Shown here: positions 4,390 to 48,460 of the stretch, piece by piece
Layout of the letters: every line of letters begins with the position of its first letter
How positions within the stretch are numbered: position 1 is the first letter of the stretch
From: Candidatus Saccharimonadota bacterium
GTDB lineage: Bacteria; Patescibacteriota; Saccharimonadia; Saccharimonadales; Saccharimonadaceae
Direction: 5' to 3'
Assembly (NCBI GenBank): GCA_017545485.1
Contig: JAFWMY010000002.1
Span: forward strand, 7,688 to 71,687
DNA: 64,000 nucleotides
Program-made: the position numbers and the translations under genes
Notes under the pieces: generated by a model
The model's input: the letters and a program-made list of their open reading frames with translations, nothing else
Told to the model about the DNA's origin: nothing
Databases searched by the model: none

Positions 4390-4748
4390 TGGTGGAGCTG
4401 CCGGATACTGCCTCCGGGTCCGAAATATCACTGGGTCATAATTCTACGCGCATAGTTCCTTGTTTCGTCTTGGCAAGTATCGTTAGCTGCAAGAAACAAA
4501 ACTAACGAACACCATGGCTAAATTTTCGTGTTAAATTTCGCCAATCAAATAACCTTATTTCCGTCATATGATAATTTTGATGCTACGGAAACTTGCACCA
4601 AAACCAGCCTAGAAAATAATATTAGGCATAAGCTGGCATGTACATGACATGCGCAGTTTTAGTGTTTTTAGCACTTATTCAATACTTACGGTATTTAATC
4701 GACGCGCCTTACAACTGTTAATATCCCGTCTAAGCTATGATCAGCCCC
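4390..4748 (-). ncRNA. ssrA: tmRNA (transfer-messenger RNA)
   Basis: The minus strand begins GGGGCTGATCATAGCTTAGACGGGA and ends ATTTCGGACCCGGAGGCAGTATCCGGCAGCTCCACCA. The 5' GGGGCTG pairs with the 3' CAGCTCC, including the G3:U pair used as the AlaRS identity element, and CCA is encoded. Candidate tag ORF GCT AAA AAC ACT AAA ACT GCG CAT GTC ATG TAC ATG CCA GCT TAT GCC TAA lies at plus 4672..4622. Confidence 0.9.
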
Positions 4749-8058: not shown

Positions 8059-8087
8059 AAAAATCCACCCTTTCGGGTGGATTTTTG
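8059..8087. terminator. bidirectional rho-independent terminator (rpmB on plus, rnpB on minus)
   Basis: aaaaATCCACCC tttc GGGTGGATtttt; stems at 8063-8070 / 8075-8082 with A- and T-runs on both sides. Confidence 0.8.
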
Positions 8088-8424
8088 ATATGAGCCATCG
8101 TTAAGCCGGGTTCTGTAACTCTGCAAGCAGAGTTGGCAATCATCTATCTTGGCGCTACATTGCTATAACGCTCTAGCGGTGAACGTGCGTCCTCGAGCAG
8201 AGGCTGATAGCACTCCTTGCAACAGGTAGGGTTTGCCTCCGATATGCATCGCTACATATCGCTGTGGGCTCTTACCCCACTCTTTTCACCATCGCCCATT
8301 GGGCAGTTTTGTTTCTGTGGTACTTTCCCTATCCTTGCGGACGGTCGCCGTTAGCGACTACCTTGCTCTATGTTGCCCGGACTTTCCTCTTTTTAACAAG
8401 CGATTGCCTTTCAGGCTCCCCTAT
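8088..8424 (-). ncRNA. rnpB: RNase P RNA, bacterial type A
   Basis: The minus strand contains GAGGAAAGTCCGGGC (P4 5' strand), CCACAGAAAC, GGTGAAAAGAGTGGGGTAAGAGCCCAC, CAAGATAGATGATTGCC and ACAGAACCCGGCTTA (P4 3' strand). 5' GAGCC pairs with 3' GGCTC (P1). TGATATAAT sits at 8425-8433, just upstream. End coordinates are good to about 5 nt. Confidence 0.9.
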
Positions 8425-8436
8425 ATTATATCATAT

Positions 8437-9345
8437 TTAAGCGCCAACACGGTCTTTACCGTTGTGACGAGGAGCATTGTGCTCAATATACTCAATAATT
8501 TTAGAAGCTACATCGCGGCCAGTAACTTTTTCTATACCGAAACCAGGAGAGGCATTTACTTCTAACACTAATGGACCGCGTGAGGAGCGCATGAGGTCTA
8601 CACCACAAATATGTAACCCCATGGCTTTCGCAGCCTTAATTGCAACTTTTTTCTCTTGATCTGTTAATTTGATTGGTGTACCAAGACCACCTTTATGAAG
8701 ATTAGAGCGAAAATCATCATCTAACGATTCCCTTTTCATAGAGGCGACTACGCGACCGCCCACTACAAAAGCACGAATGTCTGTACCGGCAGACTCTTTG
8801 ATAAACTCCTGCAAAAGGATATTGGTGCCGTCTTCGTTATAGAGATAAAACGCCTGAAGAGCTGATTTAGCGGCTTTACGGGTGTCGGCAAGAATGACAC
8901 CATTACCGTGAGTACCGGAAGCTAACTTGATAATAACAGGGAGGCCAATCTGTTCCAATAAGTCGTCTATATCAGAGGTGTTGCGCGAAACTAGAGTTTT
9001 TGGAGTATCTACGTCATATTTAGCTAAAATCTGAGCGGCACGCAATTTATCACGAGCACGCGTGATCGCTACAGAGGCTGCGGAGGTGTAGACACCTTGC
9101 ATTTCAAATTGGCGTACAACGGCACAACCATACCTAGTCATACCATTAGAGATACGTGGTAAAACCGCATCAAAACCTGATAACTTTTCTCCTTTGTAAT
9201 AGACATCTGGATGTTTATCATCTAGAGAAAGATAACAGTTTTTGTATTTAATTACTCTTACTTTGTGGCCACGTTTCTCGGCTTCTTCAACCAAGCGCTT
9301 AGTAGAATAATTGGCATTACCATTTGAAAGAATTGCTAATTTCAT
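8437..9345 (-). CDS. rimK: RimK-family ATP-grasp alpha-L-glutamate ligase
   Basis: 302 aa: MKLAILS...STKRLVEEAEKRGH, then ATP-grasp motifs (VIIKLASGTHGNGV, LLQEFI, GVDLM...PLVLEVNASPG). Confidence 0.85.
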   Translation of the reverse strand: MKLAILSNGNANYSTKRLVEEAEKRGHKVRVIKYKNCYLSLDDKHPDVYYKGEKLSGFDAVLPRISNGMTRYGCAVVRQFEMQGVYTSAASVAITRARDKLRAAQILAKYDVDTPKTLVSRNTSDIDDLLEQIGLPVIIKLASGTHGNGVILADTRKAAKSALQAFYLYNEDGTNILLQEFIKESAGTDIRAFVVGGRVVASMKRESLDDDFRSNLHKGGLGTPIKLTDQEKKVAIKAAKAMGLHICGVDLMRSSRGPLVLEVNASPGFGIEKVTGRDVASKIIEYIEHNAPRHNGKDRVGA

Positions 9346-9360
9346 ATTATCCTTTCTGCT

Positions 9361-9924
9361 TTAAGCCTGTTTTAAAGTTGTTCTAACATATTTTTGATGG
9401 AATAAATAGGGGTCTTTTTTGAGTCGCTTCTCTATAGCCCTAGTTTTAGGCTTTTTTGGACGAATGGTAACGTTTTTTTCGGTTACATTAACCAAGAATT
9501 TGCCTGCAATAGTGCGACGTCCAATCAAAACTGGAAAGGTGTTAAGGCTGCGGTTTGAGAGATTGAATAAAGCTTTAATCCTGCGACCAGATAGTTTAAG
9601 GCTAAGCTGAACGCGATAACGGATTTGTTCATGACCGGAAGAACTTCTTATAACAGCAGCTTTAAAATCTTTGCGTTTTATAGTTTTGCCTGTATAAAAA
9701 GGGCTTTTTTTATCAAAAAGCTGGAAGTGTAATACTCCGTCTTGGCTAACCTCTATGTGGCTAGCCCAAATTGAGGACGAATCAGCCCCGGTATCAATCT
9801 TGGCGGGAATATGTTTATAGTCTTCCACGTCAATGTATTCGGTAGAGCCAATGGTTCTCATAACAGGTTTATTATTTATCCCAGTCATAATCTTAATTAT
9901 ACCATTTTTGCTTAATATAGTCAA
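9361..9924 (-). CDS. retropepsin-like aspartic protease (DUF785, RimB-like partner of RimK)
   Basis: IPAKIDTGADSSSIWA and VLIGRRTIAGKFLVNV. TTG start with a GAGG SD 7 nt upstream. Sits immediately upstream of rimK in the same orientation. Confidence 0.6.
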   Translation of the reverse strand: MTILSKNGIIKIMTGINNKPVMRTIGSTEYIDVEDYKHIPAKIDTGADSSSIWASHIEVSQDGVLHFQLFDKKSPFYTGKTIKRKDFKAAVIRSSSGHEQIRYRVQLSLKLSGRRIKALFNLSNRSLNTFPVLIGRRTIAGKFLVNVTEKNVTIRPKKPKTRAIEKRLKKDPYLFHQKYVRTTLKQA

Positions 9925-9937
9925 TATCTTACCTCTG

Positions 9938-10789
9938 TTATTTATTTCGTAATATATTATCTATTGCAGCGTTGGCTTCATGGTCTGCAAGTGCGTTTTG
10001 GGAGCGAGGCACATGAGTAAAAGAAACAGCGTCAAAATCGCTAAGCTTCGCTTGGATATCTTGATAAATTGGCATGATATCTTGATTTTTAACCGAAAAG
10101 ATACCTGATAATTGATTTACTACCATAAGGCTGTCAGAGATAAATTTTACAGTTTTGTAGCCCAATTCGGTGGCACGGTCTATTCCTTTACGCATAGCAT
10201 AATATTCGGCCATGCGAGAGGTAGCAAAACCAATAAATTCTCCTCCTTGTTCAATAATTGCTCCTTTACTATCATGAATTACGTAACCAATACCAGATGG
10301 TCCAGGATTACCGCGTGAAGCTCCATCTACGTTAATTGTGATGCTATTTGCAGTATCACGAGCATTCACTCGGTTAGAAAAGGTCTTTTCTTCTACTATC
10401 TCGGTAACGGCAATGCTGGTTTCATTGAGATGAATGTTGGAATTAGCGAAATCTTTGACATATTTGTAAGCGGTGTATCTTTCTCTTGGGGATGGTTTTT
10501 CTTCTCCAGCAATGGTGAGTTCATATATTATATATAGATTGCTTAATTGAGAAGAGCCTTCGGGAGCGAGAAACGTAATCACGTCTTTTAGCTTGACAGA
10601 AGAAGCAACCAGCCCAGTGTACTCTGTAAGAGAACGTGCCATGGCTTCCTCTGGTTGTTCACCAAATTTAATCTTGCCGGTTGGGAGCTCCCAAAAAACC
10701 GGCGACTCGCTGCGTCCCCGGTTGCGTTTAAAAACTAAAACCCCCTCTTCGTTTTTAATGATACCTACTACGCGTATTCTTTGTTTCAT
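9938..10789 (-). CDS. Nudix-domain / RNase HI-like fusion protein
   Basis: N-terminal Nudix fold (GKIKFGEQPEEAMARSLTEYTG). C-terminal RNase H-like DEDD residues (VDGASRGNPGPSGIGYVI, AEYYAM, ISDSLMVVNQL, ADHEANAA). I place the start at the ATG at 10789, not the GTG at 10795 used by the track. Confidence 0.7.
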   Translation of the reverse strand: MKQRIRVVGIIKNEEGVLVFKRNRGRSESPVFWELPTGKIKFGEQPEEAMARSLTEYTGLVASSVKLKDVITFLAPEGSSQLSNLYIIYELTIAGEEKPSPRERYTAYKYVKDFANSNIHLNETSIAVTEIVEEKTFSNRVNARDTANSITINVDGASRGNPGPSGIGYVIHDSKGAIIEQGGEFIGFATSRMAEYYAMRKGIDRATELGYKTVKFISDSLMVVNQLSGIFSVKNQDIMPIYQDIQAKLSDFDAVSFTHVPRSQNALADHEANAAIDNILRNK

Positions 10790-33439: not shown

Positions 33440-36400
33440 TTAATTTGCGAGAGTGAAGGATTTGCCTGATGGTGGAGTAGCAGTGACCGAAGTAGTGCTA
33501 CCATAAAGATTTGAAGTAGTATTGCTAATCGGGCCTGTTGCTGTACCGTTATTGGTTTTTGGAATAGTAATGGACCAGGTGGTGGCGTTGTAACCAGCGT
33601 AGAAAAGCATGTTAGACATATTCGTCACATTGGAAGTGTTCCAGGAAGAGAGATTTAAAGTAAAGGTAGTGGCATCGTAGCCAGCCATATAGAACATGCT
33701 AGACATATTTGTCACACTGGAAGTGTCCCAGGAAGAGAGGTCCAAAGTAAAGGTGGTGGCGCTGTAGCCGGCTTGGTTGAACATGTAAGACATATTTGTC
33801 ACACTGGGAGTGTTCCAGGAGGAGAGATTGCCTACGGACCAAGTGGTGGCGCTGTAGCCAGAAGAGGAAAACATACTAGCCATATTTGTTACACTAGAGG
33901 TGTCCCAGGAAGAGAGGTCCAAAATAAAGGTGGTGGCGCTGTAGCCGGCTTGGTTGAACATGCTGTTCATGTACTTCACGTTAGAAGTACTCCAAGAAGA
34001 AAGGTCGCCTACAGACCAGGTGGTGGCGCTGTAGCCGGCTTGGTAGAACATGTTAGACATATTTGTCACACTGGAAGTATTCCAGGAGGAGAGGTCGCCA
34101 ACGGACCAGGCAGTGGCGCTGTAGCCAGAAGAGGAAAACATACTAGCCATATTTGTTACACTAGAGGTGTCCCAGGAAGAAAGATCCAGGGTGAAAGAGG
34201 CTGCATTATGACCAGCACCGAAGAACATACTAGACATATTTGTCACACTGGAAGTATTCCAGGAGGAGAGGTCGCCTACAGACCAGGTGGTGGCACTGCG
34301 GCCAGAAGAGAAAAACATACTAGCCATATTTGTTACACTAGAGGTGTCCCAGGAAGAGAGGTCCAGAGTAAAGGTGGTGGCGCTATAGCCAGTATAATAG
34401 AACATCTGAGACATAGTTGTCACTTTAACAGTATTCCAGGTAGAAATAGTGGATAAGTCAGATAAGGCTCTCATTTCATAAAAGAAAGAACTAGAATTTT
34501 TATTCATAATAATATTTGTAGCTTCAGAATAATAGTAAATAGTAGTGTTAGTAGAATCATACCAAGCATAAATTGGATATGGCGAAGTACTGTCTGAGAT
34601 AGTATTTGCAGTAGCAGGAGTAAAGCCATTTGGTAATGTATTGGAGCGGACAAGAGCTGTGATGGTATTATCTTGGGTTGAATAAGAAGCTGAACTATTT
34701 CCAGCCAGTCGCTTGAGCTTTTGGTTTACAGTTGTGCCTTGATCAAGTAAGGCCCCTTCTACCCATATAGCATAAAGGGTAATAGTGTTGCCAGTAGTAG
34801 TGAGGTTAGTGACTTGCTGCCCGTCACCATAAAATGTACCAGTACCACTAGCGTTCGTATTCCAACCACGGAAAATAAAGCCAGAACGGGTAAACGTACT
34901 AGTTTTAATGGCGGTAGCTGCGTCTCTTGCTACGGTCTGGTTGGTCATAGTACCAGACCCACCATTAGCATTAAAGGCAATATAATAAACATCATCCCAA
35001 ATAGCATAAAGAGTAAGCGAATCATTATAAGCTACATTAGCTGGAGCAGTAAAGTTAGAGTTAGCAGCATAAGAAGTACCAGTACCATCAGCTTTAGTGT
35101 TCCAGTTTCTGAATTGTTTATTAGCTCCTGGTGCAGTAAAACCATTACTCTTTAATGTGATAGATTCTCCTGCAGCAACAGTTTGGCTAGCCGTAGTACC
35201 GCTCCCGCCATTAGCATTGTAATTAATTGTTAGGTTGTTTTTCCAAACAGCATATAAAGTCTTAGTTTCGCCATTATTACCAGGAAAATCATTTAAGACT
35301 GCATCGGCCGTAGTATAATCCGCAGTAGTGGCGGACTGGTTTTCACCCCACCCATAGAATGTGCGAAGTGAATCAATAACGGGTGTTTTATATTCACCAC
35401 TTACAATGGTGCGTGAGCAAACTTGAGCAGTAGAAGCATAGCTAGCAGGCGCAGTGCTATAATAGCCAACCACATTAGCATAGTATCCCCAATATTGTCC
35501 TGAACCATCTGAATAAAATGCGAAAGTAGCAGTATCACCTGGAATATCTAATTCTACTGTAGTAGTTGTGTTATTCCCTCCCATGTATGTAGCTAATTGC
35601 CCAGCAGACATGTTCCTGGTAACACTGCCAGTGTATTCTCCTTGGAAGACATATAGCATATCCCAGTTATTCTCTGTGCCGTAAGTAATAGTGGCATGTA
35701 GCGACTCAGCGCCTGGGATAGTAATAACGTCCTTAGTGGCTAAATTGTTGTCATACTTAGTAGTGCCAATTTGTGTGCCATCATTATTAATATTAGAAGT
35801 ATGTGAATAGCTAGGATATGATACGTATTTAGTAGCACATTCATTATAATAAGAAACAGTATTAACCGAAGCAGAGTTATCATAATTTAGGCCATTACCA
35901 TTGAAATTAACCGTCATTGGAGTAATCTGCTCCCATTGAGCATAAAGAGTAATAGTTTGGCCAACAGGAGCAAGATTAGTAACTGAAGCGCCATCTGCAT
36001 AGTCTGTTCCAGTACCATTTGCCCTGGTGTTCCACTTAACAAAACGATAAGCTGTGCTAGAAGTAGCAGAACGTTGAAAAGCGTTCGCTTTTAGAGCAGT
36101 AGCCTCACCAATAGTAATACTTTGATCAGGCATAGTCCCAGTAACTATATCTGTAGTATTAGCGTCAAAATGGATGGCATAGAGATTGCTTGGGACCATA
36201 CACCTAATACTTCGGCCGTAGTACTTACTGTCGTAATTCGTACCTGGGTAAACGTAGGGACTATCCAGGTACAGGAAGTAGCTACCGATGTTACTGTTCG
36301 CAGTAGACGACCAATAGTAACCGCTGCTACCCCTACCGCCCGCGGACGACGTACCGAAGATGCCGGAGTAGAGGAAGTTGTTAGGAAAACTTCTAAGTTT

Positions 36401-38032
36401 GTTAGCTACTGGTCTAGCTTCAGCTGTGCCTGTATAATATGGATATGTGCTGCTACTGTAGTTAGCTGGGTTTACACCGCCATTTAATGCATCTACAGTT
36501 AGATTCCAGAAATCATTATCGTCGTTACTTTCTATTCTAGTTTTATCGCCACTTTGTGGTAGATGCCAGCCAGTAGGACATAGTGAAGTATTAGTAGTAG
36601 ATTGATTATTAGTACCATTGTGGGTAAGATCTGCTATAGCCGCATGCCAAGTGTAGTAGTTGCCATAGCTATACATTGCTACACCATTACTAGTTGGTGA
36701 AGAAGCACGAGTAGAAGTGTTAACGTTATTATAGCGTGGCATACGGTAGCCTGGGTAATTAGATGTACCGATATCTATACTAGCAGTACCTTCCTGAGTG
36801 CCGCTGTAGTATAGACTGTTGGCGGTGGTGAAATAGGAGAAGTTGGCGGATTCTGCATCAGCTAGTCCGGAGAAGTTGCCGTAAGTAGTAGATGCGCCGT
36901 AACCTTGAGCTAGGTTACCAGTGCTGTTATCACTATTGGTGCTTTCTAGTCTTAGATTCTCAATCATCCAACAATTACCATCTGCTAGTCTGGCCACAGC
37001 ATAAGTATCGTTGTCGCGTTGGTCTGTAAGGGCAGTAATACTGTTTTTAGTAAGGTCTAGGGCACCGGTAGTACTGTTATATGTAGTAGTATCTAAACTG
37101 CTACAGCCCATCCAGCCTTGTAGATTACCTTGACTAGGTATCCAGACAGCATATAGTTTTACGATGCTGTCATTGTCTGTATCATAATTAGTAAAGCCAT
37201 TAGGAAGAGTAACGGTTTCTTGTGGACCATAAACGATTGGATTATTAGTATTATCATTATCTATGAGTTTAGCTCCGGCATTCTGGTCAGTACTCCATCC
37301 AGCAAAGCCATAGCCAGTCCTGCTGAAGTTACTAGCAATTAGGTCTATAGTATCACCATCTTTAACTCCAGTATGGATTACTCCGGTACCTGCTGCACCC
37401 ATAGTGCCAGCATCTGCATTATTACCATCATAAGCAATGTTAACTGTCATACAGGTCTCATCCATAGTAAGGTAATAAACGATTGTACCATTATTCCCCA
37501 TTCTATATGCACCAGGAGTTATAGTTTCGTCTGTATGTACACCATAATTAATGTTAAAGGTATCATTGATATTACTATTAGGATTGGCAGTCTGAGCTGG
37601 AGTTTTAAGCACTGATGTATTAGCAGATAATGGTAAGAATACTGTAGAACTGGTAGGATTAGCTGCTAGAGTATAGCCCCATTTATTAGTATTATTACTG
37701 CTACTTAAAGCAGATGTACCATCTACTGCAGTAAATGATGCATTTTCTGAATTGTTTCCGTTTAAATATAGGTTACTGCCATTAGGAGTTGCTATATTTA
37801 GGTTATATCCTGCACGGCAGTCTGTCTGAATATTAATGGCTTCAGCTTTTATGCTGGTACCTGTACCATTAATAGTTGCATCCAGAGTTACTGAATCGCT
37901 GGTAGAAATCGCTGCTGAATAGGCAGATACTGAGACTGTGTTAGAAAAAATACTTAAGAATACAGAAAATAATGAGATAGCAAAAAACAAACACAACGCC
38001 CCAAAAATACTCTTTGTTTTTGTTCTTTTCAC
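33440..38032 (-). CDS. giant secreted multi-domain repeat protein: InlB B-repeat (Listeria-Bacteroides repeat) modules, a Fibrobacter-paralogous (FISUMP-like) domain and 10 BspA-like leucine-rich repeats
   Basis: 1530 aa with a GTG start and signal peptide. Motifs: GYGFAGWSTD...LYAVW, YNANGGSGT...FRNWNTKADGTG...LYAIW, DNDTYAVARLADGNCWMIENL...CPTGWHLP...YWSST...SIRC, and repeated DLSSWDTSSVTNMxSMF. Confidence 0.8.
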   Translation of the reverse strand: MKRTKTKSIFGALCLFFAISLFSVFLSIFSNTVSVSAYSAAISTSDSVTLDATINGTGTSIKAEAINIQTDCRAGYNLNIATPNGSNLYLNGNNSENASFTAVDGTSALSSSNNTNKWGYTLAANPTSSTVFLPLSANTSVLKTPAQTANPNSNINDTFNINYGVHTDETITPGAYRMGNNGTIVYYLTMDETCMTVNIAYDGNNADAGTMGAAGTGVIHTGVKDGDTIDLIASNFSRTGYGFAGWSTDQNAGAKLIDNDNTNNPIVYGPQETVTLPNGFTNYDTDNDSIVKLYAVWIPSQGNLQGWMGCSSLDTTTYNSTTGALDLTKNSITALTDQRDNDTYAVARLADGNCWMIENLRLESTNSDNSTGNLAQGYGASTTYGNFSGLADAESANFSYFTTANSLYYSGTQEGTASIDIGTSNYPGYRMPRYNNVNTSTRASSPTSNGVAMYSYGNYYTWHAAIADLTHNGTNNQSTTNTSLCPTGWHLPQSGDKTRIESNDDNDFWNLTVDALNGGVNPANYSSSTYPYYTGTAEARPVANKLRSFPNNFLYSGIFGTSSAGGRGSSGYYWSSTANSNIGSYFLYLDSPYVYPGTNYDSKYYGRSIRCMVPSNLYAIHFDANTTDIVTGTMPDQSITIGEATALKANAFQRSATSSTAYRFVKWNTRANGTGTDYADGASVTNLAPVGQTITLYAQWEQITPMTVNFNGNGLNYDNSASVNTVSYYNECATKYVSYPSYSHTSNINNDGTQIGTTKYDNNLATKDVITIPGAESLHATITYGTENNWDMLYVFQGEYTGSVTRNMSAGQLATYMGGNNTTTTVELDIPGDTATFAFYSDGSGQYWGYYANVVGYYSTAPASYASTAQVCSRTIVSGEYKTPVIDSLRTFYGWGENQSATTADYTTADAVLNDFPGNNGETKTLYAVWKNNLTINYNANGGSGTTASQTVAAGESITLKSNGFTAPGANKQFRNWNTKADGTGTSYAANSNFTAPANVAYNDSLTLYAIWDDVYYIAFNANGGSGTMTNQTVARDAATAIKTSTFTRSGFIFRGWNTNASGTGTFYGDGQQVTNLTTTGNTITLYAIWVEGALLDQGTTVNQKLKRLAGNSSASYSTQDNTITALVRSNTLPNGFTPATANTISDSTSPYPIYAWYDSTNTTIYYYSEATNIIMNKNSSSFFYEMRALSDLSTISTWNTVKVTTMSQMFYYTGYSATTFTLDLSSWDTSSVTNMASMFFSSGRSATTWSVGDLSSWNTSSVTNMSSMFFGAGHNAASFTLDLSSWDTSSVTNMASMFSSSGYSATAWSVGDLSSWNTSSVTNMSNMFYQAGYSATTWSVGDLSSWSTSNVKYMNSMFNQAGYSATTFILDLSSWDTSSVTNMASMFSSSGYSATTWSVGNLSSWNTPSVTNMSYMFNQAGYSATTFTLDLSSWDTSSVTNMSSMFYMAGYDATTFTLNLSSWNTSNVTNMSNMLFYAGYNATTWSITIPKTNNGTATGPISNTTSNLYGSTTSVTATPPSGKSFTLAN
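33575..34460 (-). repeat. in-frame tandem coding repeats (10 units of 27-32 codons) within the giant surface protein
   Basis: Near-identical DNA units recur, for example tgtcccaggaagagaggtccaaa at 33724 and 33901 (a 177-nt double unit). This produces the spurious antisense ORF 33773-34456. Confidence 0.85.
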
Positions 38033-45974: not shown

Positions 45975-46023
45975 ACGCTATATTTAGTGTAGAAAAGGTA
46001 TTGACAGACGCTATATGTAGGGT
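45975..46023 (+). promoter_or_regulatory. tandem NrdR-box-like operators
   Basis: ACGCTATATTTAGTGT (45975-45990) and ACGCTATATGTAGGGT (46008-46023) match 14/16 and 13/16 positions of the NrdR box consensus as I recall it (acaCwAtATaTwGtgt). Their starts are 33 bp apart, and the second box fills the promoter spacer. Confidence 0.6.
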
Positions 46024-46029
46024 TAGAAT
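46001..46029 (+). promoter_or_regulatory. sigma70-type promoter of the mini-NrdD gene
   Basis: TTGACA (46001-46006), a 17-nt spacer, TAGAAT (46024-46029). An untranslated leader of about 125 nt runs to the ATG at 46161. Confidence 0.6.
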
Positions 46030-46160
46030 AGGTTATAGGTAATGCTTAAAAACACATAAATAGCTAGGCAGAGCGTAAATTTACTAAGTAAAACGTTGAA
46101 TATAAAACGAAAGGTACAAAGTAGAACGTCCGCCCGACATAGCGAAAGAAAGGAAAAACC

Positions 46161-46598
46161 ATGAAGAAAATAATCTACAGAAACCCAAATGAAGTAGAAA
46201 ATTTTGATTTAAAAAGATTTACTAAATCGGTTTCTAAGTATGCGAAGGTGTCAGAGAAAGAGGTTAAAGAAGCTTTGGCAGATTTTGATCAATACGAGAC
46301 AATGCATGTTTCGTGCCTAGTGGAAGTAGGGATGAAACTAATTGGGGCAAAGGCCGGCGATAAAGCGATGAAAGAATATTTTGATGAACACGATATGTGG
46401 TTTGAAGAAGGTAAATTTGAGAGACTTCGCAGAATTACTGGTTACCTAGTAGGGACTTTGGACAGATGGAACGATGCAAAGAAGGCAGAAGAAAAGGCTA
46501 GAGTGAAACATTGTGTGAACTCATCTATTGATGATGCGGAGAGACTGGTTGCATTGGAAACACAAGCGATGGCACAAAACATTGCATATGCGCGCTAA
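46161..46598 (+). CDS. 145-aa protein: ATP-cone-like N-terminus plus class III ribonucleotide reductase (NrdD) glycyl-radical C-terminal motif, no catalytic barrel
   Basis: C-terminus RLRRITGYLVGTLDRWNDAKKAEEKARVKH versus the E. coli NrdD tail RRVCGYLGSPDARPFNAGKQEEVKRRVKH (from memory). N-terminus IIYRNPNEVENFDLKRFTKSV. GAAAGGA SD. Confidence 0.6.
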   Translation: MKKIIYRNPNEVENFDLKRFTKSVSKYAKVSEKEVKEALADFDQYETMHVSCLVEVGMKLIGAKAGDKAMKEYFDEHDMWFEEGKFERLRRITGYLVGTLDRWNDAKKAEEKARVKHCVNSSIDDAERLVALETQAMAQNIAYAR

Positions 46599-48322
46599 TT
46601 CTTGCCAGTATTAGGAGTTTTTGGAATAAGGATTTCGGGGACAACGGAATCCTTATTTTTTAACTGAACGGAAACTGGCTCACCGCGAGTATCTGAAGAA
46701 AATGGAACTAAAGTTAGGACGTTTTCTCGGTTAGAGTTTAAGTTCGTAATTGTAAATTCTGTAAAGTCAGTAACGCCAAGTATGGTGTCGTTTAGAATAA
46801 CTATAGCTTTCTCGGCATCAGTAGTGATATTAATTTTGTATTCTGTGTCGGAGAGAGGTGAGATATTGTTAATTTCTAGGTGAGGGGCATCATAGCCTGT
46901 GTCTTCTAGTGACTCTTCTACTCTTGGAAGGCTGTCATATCGGGCGATGATAGTATCGGTTAATATGCTTAAATCGTCCAAAGTGGAGGCGACAGCACCG
47001 CTAGTAGCTTCTGCGAGAGGCTGGTAAGTCGCAATGTTCCCTGGCGTAGTGATGATGTAAAAATTGACTGGGTCAATTTGTTGACTAAGAGTTTTAACAT
47101 CAAAAAAAGTAGTGCCATCGTGGTCGGGTGAGTGATAACCGGCGTCTGTGAGAATGACAAGAGATTTTGTAGAGCCAAAGTTCCAATTCAAGCTTTGCAT
47201 GACATGAAGAGAAGCAGAAAGGAGCGATTCGTCTGCATCACCGCCATTATTGGCAACTATTTCTGCCAAGCCAGCTTGAAAGGTTTCATAGGTACAAGTT
47301 TCAAAATTACATCTCTCAGTTGGTTGATATGGATCATTTAAATCACGATAGTCATAAAGAGCGACACGACCGCCTGCGTTAAGAGTTTTTTCGGCTAGGC
47401 GCAATGCTTCGGCTTTATATTCTTCTATGAGTGAGCTCATAGAACCAGTTGAATCAATCAAAATAGCCGTGTCGTGCGGTGAAGTATATTCGTTAGAAAA
47501 GCCAAACTCCATGGCAATTTTGCTAAAAATAAAACGAGAGGCATCTTCATAAAGATTGTCTTTGTCATACGAGGTATGACTACTAACGCTATAATGTGAA
47601 CTACAAAAGATATCATGCTTGTTGCACCATACTCCTACTTTACCTGCATAGTCTGCGGTTGTATATGGTTCCTTGGCGCCTAGTAGCCCTTTGTAGGCAC
47701 GGCAGTCTGGGACATAAACACGATATTCTGAAAGGTTATCGCCTTTGCAAGCAGGTGGGATCATGCCAAATCCTTCTGGAAGATATATTTTTGGATCACC
47801 AAAAGTTGCGGCGTATATAAGTTTACTTGGATTTAACTTTTGGAGTGCGCCCGAAACAACCATTGCGCCTTGCGAATAACCGGCGACAACGTATTTAGTG
47901 TTTTTACAAACGCTGCTATTGACTTGGCTGACGAGATTAGCAATTCCCTGCTTCACACTTTCGCCAAATGCATAAGATTCACCGCCACTAATAAGAGCGC
48001 CTAAAGCAACTGAAATATTATCGGCCCCAACTCCAATTGCGGGATAGTCCAAATCTTCTATTTCATAGCTAAGACTTGAAGTGTTTAGTTTTGATTCCAT
48101 AGCAGACTTAAATGTAAGAAAATCGTTGTTGTTGTATCTTTCACCGCCAGAGCCACGGGCGAAAATTACTTTGAGGTCTGGGCATGATATTGCGTTTGTT
48201 TGACTTGATGTTGGTTTAAGAAGTGGCTGGCCAAGAAGCGTAGCTAGTAAAGCAATATATATGAAAATGCGAGGCGGAGCGAGTGGTTTTCCATGTACGA
48301 CACTTTTTGCTGTTTTTGGCAT
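46595..48322 (-). CDS. secreted cutinase-family serine esterase fused to a von Willebrand factor A domain
   Basis: CPDLKVIFARGSGGE and GYSQGA (cutinase), then AILIDSTGSMSS (vWA MIDAS DxSxS). I place the start at the ATG at 48322 with an AAGGAG SD. The C-terminus is ...IPKTPNTGKN. Confidence 0.7.
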   Translation of the reverse strand: MPKTAKSVVHGKPLAPPRIFIYIALLATLLGQPLLKPTSSQTNAISCPDLKVIFARGSGGERYNNNDFLTFKSAMESKLNTSSLSYEIEDLDYPAIGVGADNISVALGALISGGESYAFGESVKQGIANLVSQVNSSVCKNTKYVVAGYSQGAMVVSGALQKLNPSKLIYAATFGDPKIYLPEGFGMIPPACKGDNLSEYRVYVPDCRAYKGLLGAKEPYTTADYAGKVGVWCNKHDIFCSSHYSVSSHTSYDKDNLYEDASRFIFSKIAMEFGFSNEYTSPHDTAILIDSTGSMSSLIEEYKAEALRLAEKTLNAGGRVALYDYRDLNDPYQPTERCNFETCTYETFQAGLAEIVANNGGDADESLLSASLHVMQSLNWNFGSTKSLVILTDAGYHSPDHDGTTFFDVKTLSQQIDPVNFYIITTPGNIATYQPLAEATSGAVASTLDDLSILTDTIIARYDSLPRVEESLEDTGYDAPHLEINNISPLSDTEYKINITTDAEKAIVILNDTILGVTDFTEFTITNLNSNRENVLTLVPFSSDTRGEPVSVQLKNKDSVVPEILIPKTPNTGKN

Positions 48323-48460
48323 AGTGTCTCCTTTTTTATGGGGGAAATTATAAACATGGAAAAATTGAAAAAACAACCCCTGTATCCCGCTATTTGTTGC
48401 ATAAGTGCTTTGGAAGAAAAAGGTTAAGGTTTACTTTAAATATGAAACATTTTTAAATAA

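Follow-up and report, generated by a model that had tools for sequence, protein, structure and literature searches.

A 64,000-nucleotide stretch of the genome of a Candidatus Saccharimonadota bacterium (GenBank assembly GCA_017545485.1, contig JAFWMY010000002.1, positions 7,688 to 71,687; hereafter, the window) contains a gene for a stand-alone protein of 145 amino acids (aa), denoted here the mini-gene and the mini-protein, respectively. Sequence comparison identifies residues 85-117 of the mini-protein as a genuine glycyl-radical tail of NrdD, the anaerobic (class III) ribonucleotide reductase (RNR), whereas the protein as a whole is evidently not an NrdD, with neither the barrel nor the Zn ribbon of that enzyme. 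We tentatively favor the possibility that the mini-protein is a spare part, that is, a GrcA-like glycyl-radical cartridge that would be activated by NrdG and would serve NrdD in trans. It is an abundant and constrained candidate for such a part of the anaerobic RNR, the enzyme that supplies anaerobes with DNA precursors.

The Pfam NRDD profile (PF13597) matches the mini-protein over residues 85-117 only, with 30.3 bits (cut-off 26.2), through the last 31 of the 562 model positions. Three NCBIfam NrdD models match the same residues (best E = 2.6e-12), with scores of 46, 41 and 30 bits against whole-protein cut-offs of 736, 764 and 326, and again only over the last 31-36 model positions. The sole sequence match in the PDB is to residues 707-739 of the P. 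copri NrdD (8p23), and this match improves to E = 2.3e-10 when the PDB is searched with a profile of the mini-protein family. The tail is 75-83% identical to the tails of six full-length NrdDs of the Clostridia/phage type recovered from viral contigs, the best-matching type being FERIRRITGYLVGT..RVKH. The segment RRITGY...RVKH aligns with P. copri and phage NrdDs, with the RxxGY motif followed by the C-terminal helix. The likeness to NrdD (PF13597, TIGR02487, PRK14704) is thus that of the last ~33 residues, from RxxGY to the terminal RVKH. It begins at F86 (G84 or E82 in comparisons with two of the full-length proteins), which corresponds to the end of the NrdD Zn ribbon; in the full-length proteins, CGY..CPxCG directly precedes FERIRR. 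At the other end, NrdD chains stop 4-16 residues past RVKH. The Pfam Gly_radical profile (PF01228) gives no match at E<=10 in the mini-protein or 13 of its relatives.

The ten-stranded barrel of NrdD, with its finger-loop cysteine, and the Cys4 Zn ribbon are not found in the mini-protein, the only cysteines of which, C52 and C118, are not conserved family-wide. The first-pass annotation of the window, produced from the letters alone, had recognized the NrdD tail and had noted that the barrel and the Cys4 site were missing; on all three points, the comparisons agree with it. Lacking the barrel, the Zn ribbon and any conserved cysteine, the mini-protein cannot be expected to reduce nucleotides alone, and because it carries a conserved glycyl loop without chemistry of its own, it would have to work with NrdG and an NrdD barrel. 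There is no dedicated PHROGs or NCBIfam family for the mini-proteins, only matches to the NrdD tail, and the database names found for the family are all 'hypothetical protein', which amounts to an annotation gap.

The head and the family of the mini-protein

The head of the mini-protein (residues 1-84) had been likened to an ATP-cone in the first-pass annotation, a suggestion that agrees with the predicted structure and fails by every sequence method. The Pfam ATP-cone profile (PF03477) gives no match at E<=10 in any of 14 family members; BLASTP of the head against NrdR and the six full-length NrdDs gives none either; hhalign of the mini-protein with the window's own NrdR yields a probability of 0.1%; and a profile search of the PDB returns no ATP-cone for the head, only the NrdD tail. 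By contrast, two AlphaFold2 models of the mini-protein, built from alignments of 26 close and 65 diverse sequences, agree over residues 1-83, where both predict a beta-hairpin followed by a helical bundle (predicted local distance difference test score, 74-90). When the deeper model was compared with 350,542 PDB chains using Foldseek, ATP-cone-bearing proteins made up 48 of the top 50 matches, and nearly the same list was obtained with the first model. The matches include NrdR, the NrdDs of S. thermophilus and P. copri, and class Ia R1; for the ATP-cone NrdB of L. blandensis (e.g., 5olk), the root-mean-square deviation is 3.3-3.9 Å over 92-97 alignment columns, with a probability of 0.96-0.99. 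The Foldseek E-values for the head are marginal (0.05-1). In a viral structure library, the head is matched by phage RNRs and by an 'ATP-cone domain-containing protein'.

From these models, the head is best described as ATP-cone-like in its predicted fold rather than as a proven ATP-cone. Canonical nucleotide binding by the head appears doubtful because residues 6-7 in the hairpin, which we take to be the position of the nucleotide-binding K-R pair of ATP-cones, are occupied by Tyr6, invariant in 76 orthologues (see below), and by a variable residue. By eye, the hairpin is ~2 residues longer than those of canonical cones. The idea that the head is a piece of the NrdD barrel was considered and rejected: the apparent barrel match in one related locus (L053) was the mini-protein itself in a long gapped alignment.

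The first-pass annotation presented the mini-gene as an orphan, which it is not: it belongs to a family of thousands. A word-indexed search yielded 2101 clusters of relatives, the best 120 of which are all 145-172 aa long and 83-92% identical to the mini-protein, and an exhaustive search of representatives added full-length members of 131-148 aa down to 42% identity. In a scan of one genome per species, relatives were detected in 374 species genomes, in addition to many phages (see below). Of these 374 genomes, the best 80 carry, almost without exception, the titles Candidatus Saccharibacteria or Ca. Nanosyncoccus (TM7 group G3), and most are from the ruminant gut.

The comparison of homologues proposed in the first-pass annotation reveals a conserved length, an invariant radical glycine and purifying selection. 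All 76 orthologues analyzed are 144-146 aa long, start with ATG and have an intact frame; Gly94 and the surrounding pattern RLRRITGYLVG..RWND.K..E...RVKH are invariant in 76 of 76, and Gly94 is also invariant across a 65-sequence alignment of the family. The ratio of nonsynonymous to synonymous substitution rates (dN/dS, Nei-Gojobori) is ~0.06 for the whole mini-gene; its parts give 0.09 (head), 0.03 (tail) and 0.08 (C-terminal extension), and synonymous sites are near saturation. The tail is the most constrained part of the mini-protein. An annotation of the protein as 98 aa starting from M48 was rejected, given that residues 2-47 are constrained (pN/pS, 0.17) and that the upstream ATG is present in all 76 orthologues. 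One divergent member (P0137; L188:67-504) retains the head and the radical glycine, has a degenerate tail (LRLIRTTGYITGDYRRSNDAK...RLVH) and no Pfam NRDD match, and may be a decaying or neofunctionalized copy.

Transcription signals and the locus

Given its own promoter, Shine-Dalgarno (SD) sequence and terminator (Table 1), the mini-gene can be considered a self-contained transcription unit, with predicted operators of its own. The promoter (TTGACA-17-TAGAAT, 46001-46029) has 11 of 12 matches. The two NrdR boxes associated with it are the sole exact matches to the box pattern in the 64 kb; when up to 2 mismatches are allowed, 7 matches are found where chance predicts 0.62. The promoter holds tandem 16-bp boxes separated by about three helical turns, and the genome an nrdR gene, adjoining ftsZ, which is the arrangement of an NrdR regulon.

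In an alignment of the upstream regions from 75 species, the core positions of box 1 (C, A, AT, T, G, G) are invariant in 75 of 75 and those of box 2 in 74-75, and five of the six positions of the -35 hexamer are kept in 73-75 species, the last base being A in 57; the flanks are ~50% conserved. The distance from the promoter to the ATG varies from 41 to 176 nt across these species (131 nt in the window), with operators and promoter fixed, and the ~85-nt insertion in the leader at 46061-46145 is missing from most of the 75 orthologous loci. A second chromosomal lineage (L185), with a 55% identical protein and a different synteny, has the same layout of operators and promoter: a perfect palindrome, ACGCTATATATAGCGT, is followed 32 bp on by a second box located between TTGACA and TATAAT. 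Because the boxes are conserved both in the 75 species and in the 55% identical lineage, control by NrdR appears to be an old and conserved property of the mini-gene family. The SD sequence, the promoter and the tandem NrdR boxes named in the first-pass annotation have all been located, and with 11 of 12 promoter matches and conserved operators, its proposal that the gene is likely to be expressed and wired into the control of deoxyribonucleoside triphosphate (dNTP) supply stands.

The predicted terminator folds with -20.7 kcal/mol (z = -3.99), and none of 200 shuffled sequences folds as well. The mini-gene converges on a cutinase/VWA-like gene (46595..48376, minus strand), the stop codons of the two genes overlapping, and the terminator hairpin is contained in the final ~20 codons of the convergent gene.

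Table 1. Coordinates of the mini-gene, its parts and predicted control elements in the window, and of three split nrdD loci from phages
Feature	Position	Strand	Remark
NrdR box 1 (ACGCTATATTTAGTGT)	45975..45990		exact match to box pattern
-35 hexamer TTGACA	46001..46006	+	part of 11/12 promoter match
NrdR box 2 (ACGCTATATGTAGGGT)	46008..46023		fills -35/-10 spacer, 33 bp after box 1
-10 hexamer TAGAAT	46024..46029	+	family consensus TATAAT
5' leader	46030..46160	+	~85-nt insertion 46061-46145; SD AAGGA 46150-46154
Coding sequence of the 145-aa stand-alone NrdD-tail protein (mini-protein)	46161..46598	+	ATG start; stop codon included
Head, residues 1-84	46161..46412	+	predicted beta-hairpin and helical bundle, ATP-cone-like fold
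Glycyl-radical tail, residues 85-117 (KFERLRRITGYLVGTLDRWNDAKKAEEKARVKH)	46413..46511	+	matches in Pfam, NCBIfam, PDB and PHROGs
Gly94 codon, predicted radical site (RITG*Y)	46440..46442	+	aligned with NrdD radical glycine motif
C-terminal extension, residues 118-145	46512..46595	+	not in NrdD; helix predicted with low confidence
Intrinsic terminator	46623..46661	+	15-bp hairpin and U-run, 25 nt past mini-gene stop codon
nrdR, predicted trans-acting repressor, 153 aa	31607..32068	-	Pfam ATP-cone E = 2.5e-15, Zn_ribbon_NrdR E = 5.8e-10
Split nrdD	L135:8001-10592		
Split nrdD	L167:7975-10117		
Split nrdD	L134:6453-10339		

The enzyme that the mini-protein would serve is not encoded nearby. In agreement with the first-pass annotation, tblastn with six full-length NrdDs and one NrdG detected neither nrdD nor nrdG in the 64-kb window, and the same holds for ~10 kb beyond each of its ends. 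Likewise, no NrdD barrel or NrdG was found by tblastn within 10 kb of the mini-gene in 83 Nanosyncoccus loci (L001-L083), in which the mini-gene is located between a phospholipase-C-like gene and the cutinase/VWA gene, near polA, and none was called within 10 kb in the second chromosomal lineage. McLean et al. reported that mammal-associated Saccharibacteria, including G3, carry nrdD, which clusters with that of Clostridia, and that G3 also carries nrdG; with both genes reported for the lineage, the mini-gene would not be stranded without partners. In the second chromosomal lineage (L185:6770-8529, P0124), the mini-gene is located ~1.5 kb from a cluster of glutathione-peroxidase, thioredoxin and thioredoxin-reductase genes, a proximity that may be a coincidence or may reflect a link to oxidative stress.

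Phage relatives, split nrdD genes and tail-only proteins

A divergent phage branch of the family consists of >120 clusters of proteins of 126-163 aa, with a median pairwise identity of 52%, compared with 84% within Nanosyncoccus. The respective contigs recur at ~73-105 kb, and the neighbors of the mini-gene in them include genes for portal protein, CHAP lysin, tape measure protein, terminase, NinG, YopX and ART-PolyVal proteins. These copies are lone ones in several distinct lineages of uncultured phages: neither a barrel nor nrdG was detected within 10 kb of them. The phage portal protein has no match among GenBank phages and the terminase has distant matches only (<32% identity); in tblastx comparisons of the phage loci with the Saccharibacteria loci, the mini-gene itself is the sole match.

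In six IMG/VR loci (L135, L158, L159, L163, L167 and L134), a phage nrdD gene is split. The tail-less barrel open reading frame (ORF) ends right after the Zn ribbon (CPCCGR), and a separate ORF of ~95 aa consists of a helix-plus-hairpin head joined to a FERIRRITGYLVGT..RVKH tail. In the first five of these loci, the small gene adjoins the end of the barrel gene or overlaps with it, and in L134 it is found ~1.1 kb downstream; nrdG lies downstream of the split gene in L135 and L134. Judging from their sequences, these loci show that the NrdD tail can be supplied in trans. The small subunits resemble the mini-protein in their tail module and in its boundary, the split point being where the homology of the mini-protein to NrdD starts; they differ in size, in the head, which is unrelated to that of the mini-protein, and in their location beside a tail-less barrel, whereas the mini-gene is solitary. 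Two observations on these and similar loci can be added. In L134, a pair of small ORFs (9317-9974) is located between the tail-less barrel and the tail gene and, by eye, looks like a nucleotidyltransferase/HEPN (MNT-DUF86-type) toxin-antitoxin pair. In a 218-kb IMG/VR contig with a GC content of 31.5% (L160:7286-10108), nrdD is interrupted by ~800 nt between reference residues ~322 and ~311, which may represent an intron, an intein or a homing-endonuclease insertion.

The third variety is the tail alone. These micro-proteins are complete, start with Met and are 48-62 aa long (50-79 aa when counted as ORFs in the loci), and they comprise hardly anything beyond the tail, G.GV.FERIRRITGYLVGT..RVKH; examples are L152:9971-10123, L096:9998-10219, those in L164, L165, L166 and L169, and P0144, P0155, P0162, P0195 and P0197, each a separate cluster at 50% identity. 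In the phage contigs that carry them, no NrdD barrel or NrdG was found within 10 kb of the tail-only loci; L152 is on a 39-kb contig. We found no published description of either split class III nrdD genes or tail-only proteins, and the split enzymes mentioned in a 2022 survey of RNR insertions and extensions are of class II only.

Division of an RNR over two polypeptides has precedents in other classes. The NrdA of phage Aeh1 is split by a homing endonuclease, and in Pseudomonas aeruginosa, NrdJa and NrdJb share one RNR function between two polypeptides. These enzymes are from RNR classes other than class III, with different split points, and in none of them is a radical-storage element parted from the barrel.

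Weighing the functions, and the rest of the window

Under the spare-part reading, NrdG, encoded elsewhere in the genome, would act on the free 145-aa protein and take a hydrogen from its Gly94. The tail (residues 85-117) would then enter the NrdD barrel in place of the enzyme's own C-terminal glycyl loop and pass the radical to the active-site cysteine, with the ATP-cone-like head and the C-terminal helix presumably serving as handles for docking or gating. Oxygen inactivates glycyl radical enzymes via scission at the radical glycine. With the glycyl loop broken by such chain scission, a separate tail would be a cheap, replaceable cartridge, and its most likely role would be a GrcA/YfiD-style rescue of NrdD molecules with a cleaved or unactivated tail. 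NrdR would repress the mini-gene when dNTPs are plentiful and release it when the supply falls, for instance, when NrdD has been damaged by oxygen. Phages, in turn, would carry lone copies as auxiliary genes that keep the dNTP synthesis of the host going.

By analogy, the solitary gene with regulation of its own, the lone phage copies and the tail-only versions most resemble the spare parts for oxygen-cleaved pyruvate formate-lyase, E. coli GrcA/YfiD and phage T4 Y06I, the latter being a phage homologue of GrcA according to a June 2026 review. All are small stand-alone proteins with the glycyl-radical segment of a large enzyme at their core, the solitary gene is unlinked to the enzyme gene, phage-borne copies exist, and the same logic of repair after scission by oxygen would be expected. 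The differences are that the tail of the mini-protein is of the NrdD type and that of GrcA of the pyruvate formate-lyase type; that the N-terminus of the mini-protein is predicted to be folded and ATP-cone-like, whereas that of GrcA is a disordered region; and that the mini-protein has an extra, predicted C-terminal helix and putative control by NrdR, that is, by dNTP status.

Several observations weigh against the spare-part reading. The resident NrdD of Nanosyncoccus, on which it depends, is a reported one, taken from the literature. The folded 84-residue head and the 28-residue extension resemble a stable subunit, in contrast to the disordered N-terminus of GrcA. The wide retention of the gene (374 species genomes) in a lineage with tiny genomes, together with the dN/dS of 0.06, fits an essential component at least equally well. 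Finally, in the AlphaFold2 models, the tail and the extension are predicted at low confidence and the tail is not in the docked conformation, although such low confidence is expected of a segment that would fold only once docked.

The first of the alternatives, a possible but rather unlikely one in our estimate, is that the mini-protein is an obligate small subunit that carries the radical for a class III RNR made of two pieces. The resident NrdD would be tail-less, ending after the Zn ribbon and unable to work alone; the mini-protein would be the sole carrier of the glycyl radical, docked non-covalently to the barrel by its head; and the gene would have drifted away from nrdD-nrdG. The six split phage loci provide a direct precedent, with a split point that matches the start of the NrdD homology in the mini-protein and, in L134, a small gene that is already displaced by ~1.1 kb; the folded head, the breadth of retention and purifying selection at the level of essential genes point in the same direction, and for a core RNR subunit, control by NrdR would be fitting as well. 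Yet the small gene abuts or overlaps the barrel gene in five of the six split loci, whereas in 83 Nanosyncoccus loci, any barrel or nrdG must be >10 kb away from the mini-gene, and the head of the mini-protein is unrelated to the heads of the split subunits. Furthermore, the lone phage copies, with no barrel within 10 kb, would need a host enzyme, and the treatment of the G3 nrdD as an ordinary nrdD in the trees of McLean et al. hints weakly in the same direction. The obligate-subunit and spare-part readings both make the mini-protein a replaceable radical cartridge and differ only in whether the barrel has a built-in tail.

Less probable still, and in our view improbable, is the role of a regulator or decoy, in which the head would bind nucleotides or pair with the cones of NrdR or NrdD, or the tail would act as a competing NrdG substrate or radical buffer, with the phage copies manipulating the dNTP control of the host. 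The predicted likeness of the head to the ATP-cones of NrdR, NrdB and NrdD would suit this role, given that ATP-cones mediate oligomerization and activity control in class III RNRs, and the apparent regulation of the mini-gene itself by NrdR would close a feedback loop. However, it is the tail rather than the head that is most constrained, with an invariant glycine and C-terminal RVKH; the existence of tail-only proteins (48-62 aa) shows that selection acts on the tail as a unit by itself; and the head combines Tyr6 and a variable residue 7 at the presumed K-R position with the failure to match the ATP-cone profile.

The probability that the mini-gene is a decaying pseudogene, an in-frame deletion relic of a full-length nrdD, as the first-pass annotation had allowed, appears negligible: the architecture does look like the two ends of NrdD minus the barrel, and the cone-like head fits such an origin, but the dN/dS of 0.06 overall and 0.03 in the tail, the 76 of 76 intact frames of 144-146 aa with ATG starts, the invariant Gly94, the near-saturation of synonymous sites, the conserved promoter and operators, the diversity of the family including its phage members and the lack of a full-length nrdD at the mini-gene locus in any relative examined all speak against it. 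As a description of the present-day gene, the relic is refuted, and an ancient origin by deletion may still apply. The core of the first-pass interpretation, namely that the mini-protein is a radical module serving an anaerobic RNR and encoded on its own, is still the reading that fits best after these comparisons; its notions of an orphan and of a relic do not survive, and the rival of a split subunit had escaped it.

Autonomous glycyl-radical cofactors are a known concept; one of the NrdD type, with a cone-like head, NrdR control and phage carriage, would be new. A literature search pairing GrcA, 'spare part' or 'split' with NrdD returned nothing relevant. The June 2026 review states that proteins serving as spare parts are known only for formate lyases and that the existence of others among glycyl radical enzymes is undetermined, which agrees with the first-pass statement that no equivalent had been described. 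The spare-part reading, if true, would make the mini-protein the first radical spare part of any enzyme other than pyruvate formate-lyase, and it makes testable the question of further spare parts that the review left open. It also suggests how the ultra-small, host-dependent Saccharibacteria sustain DNA synthesis on the oxygen-exposed surfaces of mucosa and gut. The lone copies in many phages would represent a new class of auxiliary genes. The split nrdD genes, together with the 48-62-aa tail-only proteins, suggest that a class III RNR can be a two-polypeptide enzyme, which would be useful for enzymology and engineering.

A broader proposition, which we consider unlikely in its entirety, is that class III RNRs can run on a diffusible, separate glycyl-radical subunit that has been built at least 3 times (joined to a cone-like or a hairpin head, or as the tail alone) and has been spread by phages to keep or seize the anaerobic dNTP synthesis of the host. 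Saccharibacteria would then have fixed the cone-headed, NrdR-controlled form, with a head that gates the delivery of the radical by nucleotide status. In that case, autonomous cofactors of this kind would for the first time extend beyond the formate lyases, and an oxygen-sensitive RNR would follow a logic of two components that recalls the division of class I enzymes into alpha and beta.

Among the ordinary housekeeping genes of a Saccharibacteria chromosome, the window contains RNase P RNA (class A; 8087-8419, minus strand), tmRNA (4390-4748, minus strand) and five tRNAs. Between ftsA and ftsZ/nrdR, there is a gene for a 1530-aa Flg_new/DUF285 repeat protein (33440-38032, minus strand), which is a strain-variable surface-protein insertion because it is missing from the otherwise syntenic locus L002.

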